A stretch of DNA of 5,694 bases. Source: a virus (lineage: Duplodnaviria > Heunggongvirae > Uroviricota > Caudoviricetes). Each line of letters starts with the position of its first letter. Positions within the stretch are counted from its first letter, which is position 1. Under the pieces are notes generated by a model. It was given only the letters and a program-made list of their open reading frames with translations. It did not search any database and was not told where the DNA came from. The DNA is taken from IMG/VR virus record IMGVR_UViG_2698536559_000015; one strand, 5' to 3'. This document shows positions 3,763 to 3,838 of the stretch, one piece after another. The position numbers and the translations under genes are program-made.

Positions 3763-3838
3763 CCGCCACTAGCCATCAGGAAAGAGCGTCAACCCTTTAA
3801 GTTGAGTGTGCGAGGTTCGAGTCCCCGGTGGTGGTCCA
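3763..3838 (+). tRNA. Atypical tRNA-like gene, possibly a degenerate or pseudo-tRNA; anticodon loop CCTTTAA (UUU by position); by context could be an argN/argO-like phage tRNA
   Basis: 76 nt with encoded CCA. Acceptor CCGCCAC/GTGGTGG (7 bp, one G-U), T-arm CGAGG-TTCGAGT-CCCCG (one mismatch), anticodon stem TCAAC/GTTGA. The D-stem has only 2 Watson-Crick pairs and position 33 is C rather than U. Starts 2 nt after the previous tRNA. Confidence 0.5.

Follow-up and report, generated by a model that had tools for sequence, protein, structure and literature searches.

The tRNA cluster of a lambdoid prophage raises a routine annotation matter: some GenBank phage records label a stretch of 76 nucleotides tRNA-Lys, whereas RefSeq gives the same stretch no annotation. 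Is the element a working tRNA gene, a damaged one, or something else? We addressed this in a 5,694-nucleotide stretch of a Caudoviricetes virus (IMG/VR record IMGVR_UViG_2698536559_000015), referred to below as the window, where the element occupies positions 3763-3838. That such an element exists in public records, and that its kind is phage tRNA gene or pseudogene, was already known. What is new here is the series of alleles to which it belongs, the lesion responsible for the disagreement, and the pattern of anticodon switching and decay at its position in the cluster, which we call slot 2.

ARAGORN identified three neighbouring tRNA genes on the plus strand of the window, with anticodons CAT, TTT (Lys) and TCT (Arg), forming a lambdoid prophage tRNA cluster placed downstream of Q. 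The features of the cluster and of its middle gene are as follows.

3648-3676, plus strand: promoter-like site, TTGCAA, 17 nt, TATTAT, with 9 of 12 consensus matches, 10 nt 5' of the ileZ-like tRNA
3686-3761, plus strand: ileZ-like tRNA, anticodon CAU, found by ARAGORN, Rfam 72.5 bits, labelled tRNA-Ile in RefSeq
3763-3838, plus strand: slot-2 tRNA-like gene, 76 nt, Lys(UUU)-type, with C33, A51·C63, deletion of U12 and G3·U70
3772-3787, plus strand: D arm of the slot-2 gene, GCC / ATCAGGAAA / GAGC, with U12 absent between 3773 and 3774
3789-3805, plus strand: anticodon arm of the slot-2 gene, TCAAC / CCTTTAA / GTTGA, with C33 at 3795, TTT at 3796-3798 and A37 at 3799
3811-3827, plus strand: T arm of the slot-2 gene, CGAGG / TTCGAGT / CCCCG, with an A51·C63 mismatch in the stem
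3832, plus strand: T at tRNA position 70 of the slot-2 gene, giving G3·U70; C in the 77-nt Lys-type allele
3852-3926, plus strand: argO-like tRNA-Arg(UCU), found by ARAGORN, Rfam 65.4 bits, named argO in Stx2 phage annotation
3942-3959, plus strand: terminator-like GC-rich hairpin with a T run behind it, downstream of the tRNA trio

Because a promoter-like site lies 5' of the trio and a terminator-like hairpin 3' of it, the three genes may form a self-contained transcription unit and not only part of the Q-dependent late transcript. Both signals are weak evidence. About 0.9 promoter-like sites of this quality are expected by chance in the region, and the sequence of the site is conserved along with the tRNA cassette in PPompW-type prophages. 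Elsewhere in the window, the Q gene was located at 1434-1805 (PF06530), and three minus-strand open reading frames (143, 87 and 293 amino acids; 1841-3389) between Q and the tRNAs gave no Pfam match. The largest of these, at 293 amino acids, is named 'LAPAL motif-containing putative phage structural protein' by RefSeq in related prophages. A member of the STnc100 sRNA family was found on the plus strand at 4700-4886, about 800 nt downstream of the trio (Rfam 114.4 bits, E = 2.5e-25).

ARAGORN typed the middle gene as tRNA-Lys(UUU), and its drawing agreed with much of what the initial annotation had read from the letters by hand, namely an encoded CCA, a D stem of two base pairs, and an anticodon loop CCTTTAA with C33 and the positional anticodon UUU (Lys). 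Contiguous D-stem pairs are limited to G10-C25 and C11-G24 because U12 is deleted, a gap after 3773 that was seen by alignment to two other loci (L272 and L273). C13-G22 can pair only if A23 is bulged, and two contiguous pairs fall short of the 3-4 bp of a canonical tRNA. The anticodon arm has the canonical 5-bp stem, 7-nt loop (C32 C33 U34 U35 U36 A37 A38) and A37, and departs from the canonical form at position 33, where C replaces U. A suppressor reading, with anticodon UUA in a shifted register, was rejected: the 5-bp stem fixes the 7-nt loop and places TTT at 34-36. Two arms that had been described as good were so in part. The acceptor stem (CCGCCAC/GTGGTGG) does have 7 bp, but one of them is a G3·U70 wobble that had been overlooked, and the T arm has a canonical TTCGAGT loop (UUCRAnY type) but an A51·C63 mismatch in its stem. 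U8, A9, A14 and G18G19 are retained, and the discriminator is U73.

A high-scoring canonical fold, which would have shown the hand fold to be wrong, did not emerge from the covariance model. When a 96-nt stretch was searched alone, the middle gene scored 28.2 bits (E = 1.5e-4) with the Rfam tRNA model (RF00005), below the gathering cut-off of 29 bits that a canonical tRNA reaches, and in the Rfam alignment two positions of the D stem and one of the T stem were marked as non-standard pairs. In the whole-window Rfam scan at E <= 1, both flanking tRNAs were reported and the middle gene was not, which is a filter effect. The unconstrained minimum free energy fold contained no cloverleaf and had an unremarkable z-score of -1.36, a test that is uninformative here since the real argN and ileZ genes also have minimum free energy folds below their own cloverleaf energy. 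With its score under the cut-off and the identical allele skipped by RefSeq, the gene merits its description as structurally atypical.

The slot-2 gene proved to be homologous to argN, the second tRNA of the ileZ-argN-argO trio of Stx phages. The 401 nt around the tRNA cluster matched 290 phage records. Eleven PPompW-type prophage records (among H2-H12) carry the same cassette at 99.5% identity, annotated tRNA-Met, tRNA-Lys and tRNA-Arg; in Stx2 phages such as 2851, Stx2a_F349 and Nil2, where the match is about 92-93%, the genes are named ileZ, argN and argO. The alignment shows almost no variation in the spacers or in the ileZ-like and argO-like genes (the ileZ-like tRNA is identical across the aligned Stx2 phage loci), and the differences cluster in the middle gene. 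The alignment to argN that the initial annotation had called for thus gave a homologous middle gene, 84.4% identical to the F349 argN and 78-79% identical to other argN alleles. The 84% identity to an annotated argN, in the same slot of the same cluster, means that the middle gene can be taken not to be a chance match. Capture of the host lysT gene was considered and rejected, as identity to E. coli tRNA-Lys is only about 61%. A literature search on ileZ, argN and argO returned nothing useful; a comparative paper on pR' makes no mention of tRNAs.

With argN genes such as those of Stx2a_F349, Stx2a_1447 and phage 2851, the window allele shares the slot between ileZ-like and argO-like tRNAs, the acceptor 5' strand except for position 7, the D loop including A20, the T arm, the discriminator U73 and CCA. 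With the F349 argN the T arm, the 3' acceptor strand and the downstream spacer are identical. The anticodon arm and D stem are where the two part. Whereas argN has the anticodon UCG in a loop CUUCGAA with U33, the window allele has UUU in CCUUUAA with C33, having lost both C35 and G36; in the anticodon stem, G30-C40 is replaced by A30-U40 and U27·G43 by U27-A43; and argN genes score 43-56 Rfam bits with U12 present, as against 28.2 bits with U12 deleted. By slot and homology, and with A20 kept, the window allele therefore belongs with argN, but it lacks the C35 of an arginine anticodon. C35 is the main identity element for ArgRS. Among the argN genes themselves, that of Stx2a_F349 (L001:1643-1719) carries G3·U70, U7·G66 and A51·C63, scores 43.0 bits compared with 55.9 bits for the Stx2a_1447 argN, and looks like a recombinant of argN and the Lys-type allele.

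We searched the 76-nt window allele against 5,426 complete E. coli genomes and obtained roughly 3,250 places in all; E. coli E2865 and O145:H28 PPompW lysogens are examples of carriers of the exact allele. An identical copy was present in 222 records, all of them unannotated in RefSeq among the matches listed, and 534 records matched at 95-99% identity and were annotated tRNA-Lys among the matches listed. Single variants were labelled tRNA-Thr, and many records at 78-87% identity were labelled tRNA-Arg. The allele at 97.4% identity (E. coli MS6193, HS13-1 and others) is 77 nt long, with the loop CCUUUAA, C33 and A51·C63. It has an intact GCTC/GAGC D stem and G3-C70, is labelled tRNA-Lys by RefSeq, and lies in a four-gene cluster, Ile(CAU)-Lys(UUU)-Thr(UGU)-Gly(UCC). 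The window allele is this common C33 form with the U12 deletion and C70U added. Rfam scores for the series were as follows.

argN of Stx2a_1447: 55.9 bits
Canonical U33 Lys form: 53.2 bits
Common C33 Lys-type form: 44.4 bits
F349 argN: 43.0 bits
C33 Lys-type form with the U12 deletion alone: 30.6 bits
Window allele, with the U12 deletion and U70: 28.2 bits

Loss of U12, at a cost of about 14 bits, is the lesion that takes the window copy below the Rfam cut-off; C70U on top of the deletion lowers the score from 30.6 to 28.2 bits. Predicted cloverleaf energies follow the same order: the canonical Lys form has -27.0 kcal/mol, the common C33 form -22.3 and the window allele -15.4, a loss of about 7 kcal/mol relative to the 77-nt form. 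The allele series explains the split in annotation, and U12 loss is the lesion behind the disagreement.

Other members of the series have more canonical arms. A rare canonical Lys form has U33 (loop CUUUUAU), G51-C63 and a compensated U4-A69 pair; it was seen on a single IMG/VR contig, and 13 complete E. coli records matched it with at least 99% identity. One locus (L284) has the same body with a canonical Arg(UCU) loop, UUUCUAA, and a single change, C35 to U, separates UCU from UUU. The C33 family is defined by TCAAC-CCTTTAA-GTTGA on an argN-like body, which is the arrangement in the window allele, and more than 100 IMG/VR loci share its 19-nt anticodon-arm core without a difference. C33, like the T-stem mismatch, is an older feature of the lineage as a whole. 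A51·C63 is common to the reference Lys-type allele and the F349 argN; some alleles have restored an A-U pair at this position, and the annotated tRNA-Thr neighbour in related clusters likewise has an A·C mismatch in its T stem. The proposal in the initial annotation of a decayed arginine tRNA therefore survives in modified form: the gene does appear to derive from the slot's arginine tRNA, but C33 and UUU are not private defects of this copy, because they define a widespread allele family. The unusual decoding that had been offered alongside it found no direct support.

Frequent polymorphisms in the C33 family preserve pairing (C-to-U changes giving G·U at positions 2, 4, 11, 62 and 70, and the C63U repair), and stem-breaking changes are singletons, with the exception of the U12 deletion and U8C, which occur at appreciable frequency. 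This suggests that the tRNA fold was recently under constraint, with the caveat that a C-to-T bias on a transcribed gene could mimic such a pattern. Further Lys-type alleles are changed at conserved positions (U8C, D-stem mismatches, an extra anticodon-loop T), and most Lys-type alleles have G3-C70. In one slot-2 gene (L283), an extra T produces an 8-nt loop with five T's, to which ARAGORN assigns a four-base anticodon, 'tttt'. A degenerate anticodon-arm pattern matched 41 loci among genome contigs; those that are tRNAs came from E. coli and Shigella flexneri only, and the rest were chance matches. In that collection, which holds one genome per species, there was no sign of the C33 family outside Escherichia/Shigella.

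The behaviour of slot 2 across prophages was assessed in IMG/VR with three exact-pattern scans, each yielding a sample of up to 120 contigs. The census of slot 2 drew on 110 usable loci, for which the 3' end of ileZ was the sole anchor, with the following outcome.

Intact Arg(UCG) loop: 61 of 110 loci
Remnant of 80-101 nt, undetected by ARAGORN, with argO still detected: 26 of 110 loci
C33 Lys-type: 15 of 110 loci, 3 of them with the U12 deletion
Canonical Lys: 1 of 110 loci
Fusions of slot 2 and slot 3: several of the 110 loci

Undetectable remnants beside a detected argO indicate that slot 2 has been lost repeatedly while its neighbours persist. In the Ile-X-Arg(UCU) context, which is that of the window, all Lys-type alleles seen were lesioned, either by the U12 deletion with T70 or by an anticodon-arm deletion, and some argN alleles also have mismatches or T-loop changes. 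Slot-2 loops carried the anticodons UCG, UCU, UUU and UGU, with C, A or U at position 32, U or C at 33 and A or U at 38.

Several of these loci are informative in their own right. The commonest remnant (about 25 IMG/VR loci, for example L007, L014, L024 and L030) keeps the acceptor ends of argN, but its anticodon arm has given way to unrelated sequence and the TTCGA T loop is gone; with ileZ and argO intact on either side, it is clearly a dead argN. In three IMG/VR loci a hybrid tRNA joins the 5' half of argN to the 3' half of argO within the anticodon loop, and thus points to recombination between adjacent arginine tRNA genes with loss of the spacer. The slot-3 Thr(UGU) tRNA has undergone G35U, creating a canonical CUUUUAA Lys-type loop, in five loci (L182, L199, L214, L218 and L243). 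Conversely, in E. coli CE0026a (L125:3001-3077) a slot-2 Lys-type gene has undergone U35G to UGU and is labelled tRNA-Thr by RefSeq. Anticodon switches by point mutation thus run both ways between slot 2 and slot 3.

The surroundings of the middle gene are mosaic. The whole window was found in one place in no complete E. coli genome. Positions 1-3838 match prophages with the Ile-Lys-Thr-Gly cluster, with about six differences from HS13-1 over 1500-3838, two of which are the two tRNA lesions, and positions ~3632-3935 match the trio cassette of PPompW (Ile-Lys-Arg prophages). The best match to the window switches within or beside the middle gene. The tRNA cassette, about 300 bp, is identical among loci with unrelated upstream and downstream flanks, the U12 deletion is found with either 3' end and in either downstream context, and T70 with the same downstream sequence is also present in the F349 argN. 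Judged from these alignments, the cassette is a recombination joint, and G3·U70 is most simply read as a recombinational by-product. Since the cassette is such a joint, the identity of the allele across 222 genomes is not readable as purifying selection. A test for selection that compared divergence of the tRNA with that of its flanks failed, the flanks being either 0.2% divergent or non-homologous mosaic modules.

We consider the gene at 3763-3838 to be a crippled or pseudo-tRNA allele that arose by ordinary gene decay, and assign this reading a probability of about 0.58. In the history we propose, the slot-2 lineage would have begun as an arginine tRNA, with argN (UCG) and a sister form carrying UCU as its representatives. 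One branch would have gained U35, and with it the lysine-type anticodon UUU, and the common E. coli lysine-type branch would later have gained C33 and A51·C63. The window copy would then have lost U12, breaking the D stem; the mosaic junction at which the tRNA cassette sits makes recombination with an argN-type 3' end the probable source of the T70 that this copy carries, which forms G3·U70. The middle gene is probably still transcribed with both intact neighbours, and RNase P can probably still cut the transcript, because the acceptor and T arms are largely intact. The weakened D arm, together with C33 and the T-stem mismatch, would most likely leave little or no stable, chargeable tRNA. The product would be a pseudo-tRNA or a strong hypomorph, a loss of function that we infer from the lesions and that would be tolerated because slot 2 is dispensable.

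Several observations speak against decay. The window allele is 100% identical in the 222 complete E. coli records and unchanged across several flanking contexts, and has therefore not been rapidly purged or further eroded. In addition, the acceptor stem, anticodon arm, G18G19, T loop, A37 and CCA of the middle gene are intact. The pairing-preserving polymorphisms of the family, subject to the caveat given above, and the A·C mismatch in the T stem of the neighbouring tRNA-Thr point in the same direction. Nor does C33 alone amount to more than weak evidence of a dead gene, because a natural C33 elongator, yeast tRNA-Leu(GAG), works about as well as its U33 version (PMC13492127).

An alternative reading, possible yet in our view rather doubtful, is that the gene encodes a working if atypical tRNA-Lys(UUU). 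Such a tRNA would be charged by LysRS, would read AAA and AAG and, with a nuclease-resistant anticodon arm, could act as a rescue tRNA or decoy that evades the tRNA-Lys-targeting nucleases PARIS AriB, P2 Old and PrrC/RloC. It would fit the Lys call by ARAGORN, the acceptance of the 77-nt allele as tRNA-Lys by RefSeq, the structure-preserving polymorphisms frequent in the family, the tolerance of C33 in the yeast elongator (PMC13492127) and the adjoining tRNA-Thr(UGU) found in 88 of 207 loci of the C33 Lys-type family. AriB acts primarily on Lys(UUU) and Thr(UGU), which are also among the tRNAs cleaved fastest by P2 Old (PMC12409363, PMC12445682), and the tRNA-Thr(UGU) of phage 21 rescues cells from P2 Old (PMC12445682). 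AriB requires U36AAUC|A41, and its cleavage is abolished by a change of U39 (PMC12409363). In the middle gene this host site reads U36AAGUU41, so that, as in a rescue tRNA, the anticodon of a nuclease target (UUU) is combined with changes at the AriB cleavage site (positions 39-41). The gene also keeps the U36-A37-A38 element that is described as strictly required for t6A modification (PMC13276492). The window allele itself, however, has no U12, scores under the tRNA cut-off, is skipped by RefSeq, has no adjoining tRNA-Thr in the window, carries the discriminator U73 and belongs to a slot that decays often; moreover, the tRNA-Thr of the related cluster keeps the AriB motif UAAUCA, which weakens PARIS evasion specifically. 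The discriminator of E. coli tRNA-Lys is A73. Lysine codons are not rare in E. coli, and codon supplementation therefore cannot explain a lysine tRNA here, although an anti-defence role could. We think it unlikely that the C33 Lys(UUU)-type tRNA of slot 2 is, more broadly, an adaptive nuclease-evading tRNA-Lys or decoy, accompanied by a resistant tRNA-Thr(UGU) in most clusters. It is similarly improbable that the variability of slot 2 would reflect an arms race with Toprim tRNases (PARIS AriB, P2 Old) and not decay, and we would hardly expect the window allele still to contribute despite its weakened D arm.

We give little credence to a role as a non-decoding, tRNA-like structural element, which would serve either as processing punctuation for RNase P/RNase E or as a joint for recombination of prophage modules. 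The identity of the ~300-bp cassette despite unrelated flanks, the switch of best matches within or beside the middle gene, the occurrence of the U12 deletion with either 3' end and downstream context, and the existence of a slot-2/slot-3 fusion tRNA are all consistent with it. So are the largely intact acceptor and T arms, which are the parts mainly recognised by RNase P. Yet in 26 of the 110 clusters argO persists although slot 2 holds a remnant without any discernible tRNA shape, which argues that a tRNA-like spacer is not required, and a recombination joint would follow from sequence conservation and does not call for a selected function. G3·U70 raises one further option, namely that the product is a substrate of AlaRS and would place alanine at lysine codons as a mistranslating tRNA. 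This pair is reportedly the main identity element for AlaRS and transplantable to other tRNAs. We regard this as very improbable: most Lys-type alleles have G3-C70, T70 is shared with the F349 argN together with the downstream sequence and looks like recombinational baggage, the A73 and G2-C71 elements are absent, and a Lys-to-Ala mistranslator would be costly for the cell.

Near Q and stx, slot 2 has switched among the anticodons Arg UCG, Arg UCU, Lys UUU and Thr UGU and has decayed time and again beside neighbours that stay intact, and so offers a compact natural example of tRNA anticodon switching and of tRNA gene death. If the Lys-type form is functional instead, temperate lambdoid phages, like T5-like phages, would be carriers of Lys/Thr rescue tRNAs. 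These would counter PARIS-type and Old-type defences, with a bearing on prophage induction and on the spread of Shiga-toxin phages in strains with those defences.

Comparison with known systems places the window allele closest to the prophage tRNA-Lys of Ile-Lys-Thr(UGU)-Gly(UCC) clusters in E. coli/Shigella (for example MS6193, HS13-1 and PhiR47_1), with which it is identical at 75 of 77 positions and shares the C33 loop CCUUUAA and A51·C63. The 77-nt tRNA-Lys is followed by Thr and Gly genes, whereas the window allele is followed by argO, lacks U12 and has U70. The tRNA-Lys(UUU) of T5, acting against PARIS AriB, and the tRNA-Thr(UGU) of phage 21 and others, acting against P2 Old, are phage-borne like the middle gene. 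These rescue tRNAs are not reported to have structural lesions, in contrast to the middle gene, which is lesioned and whose resistance is predicted from a sequence motif. Yeast tRNA-Leu(GAG) shares with the middle gene a C in place of the near-universal U33. That tRNA is otherwise canonical and its function has been demonstrated (PMC13492127), whereas the middle gene, known from its sequence, bears C33 together with additional lesions.
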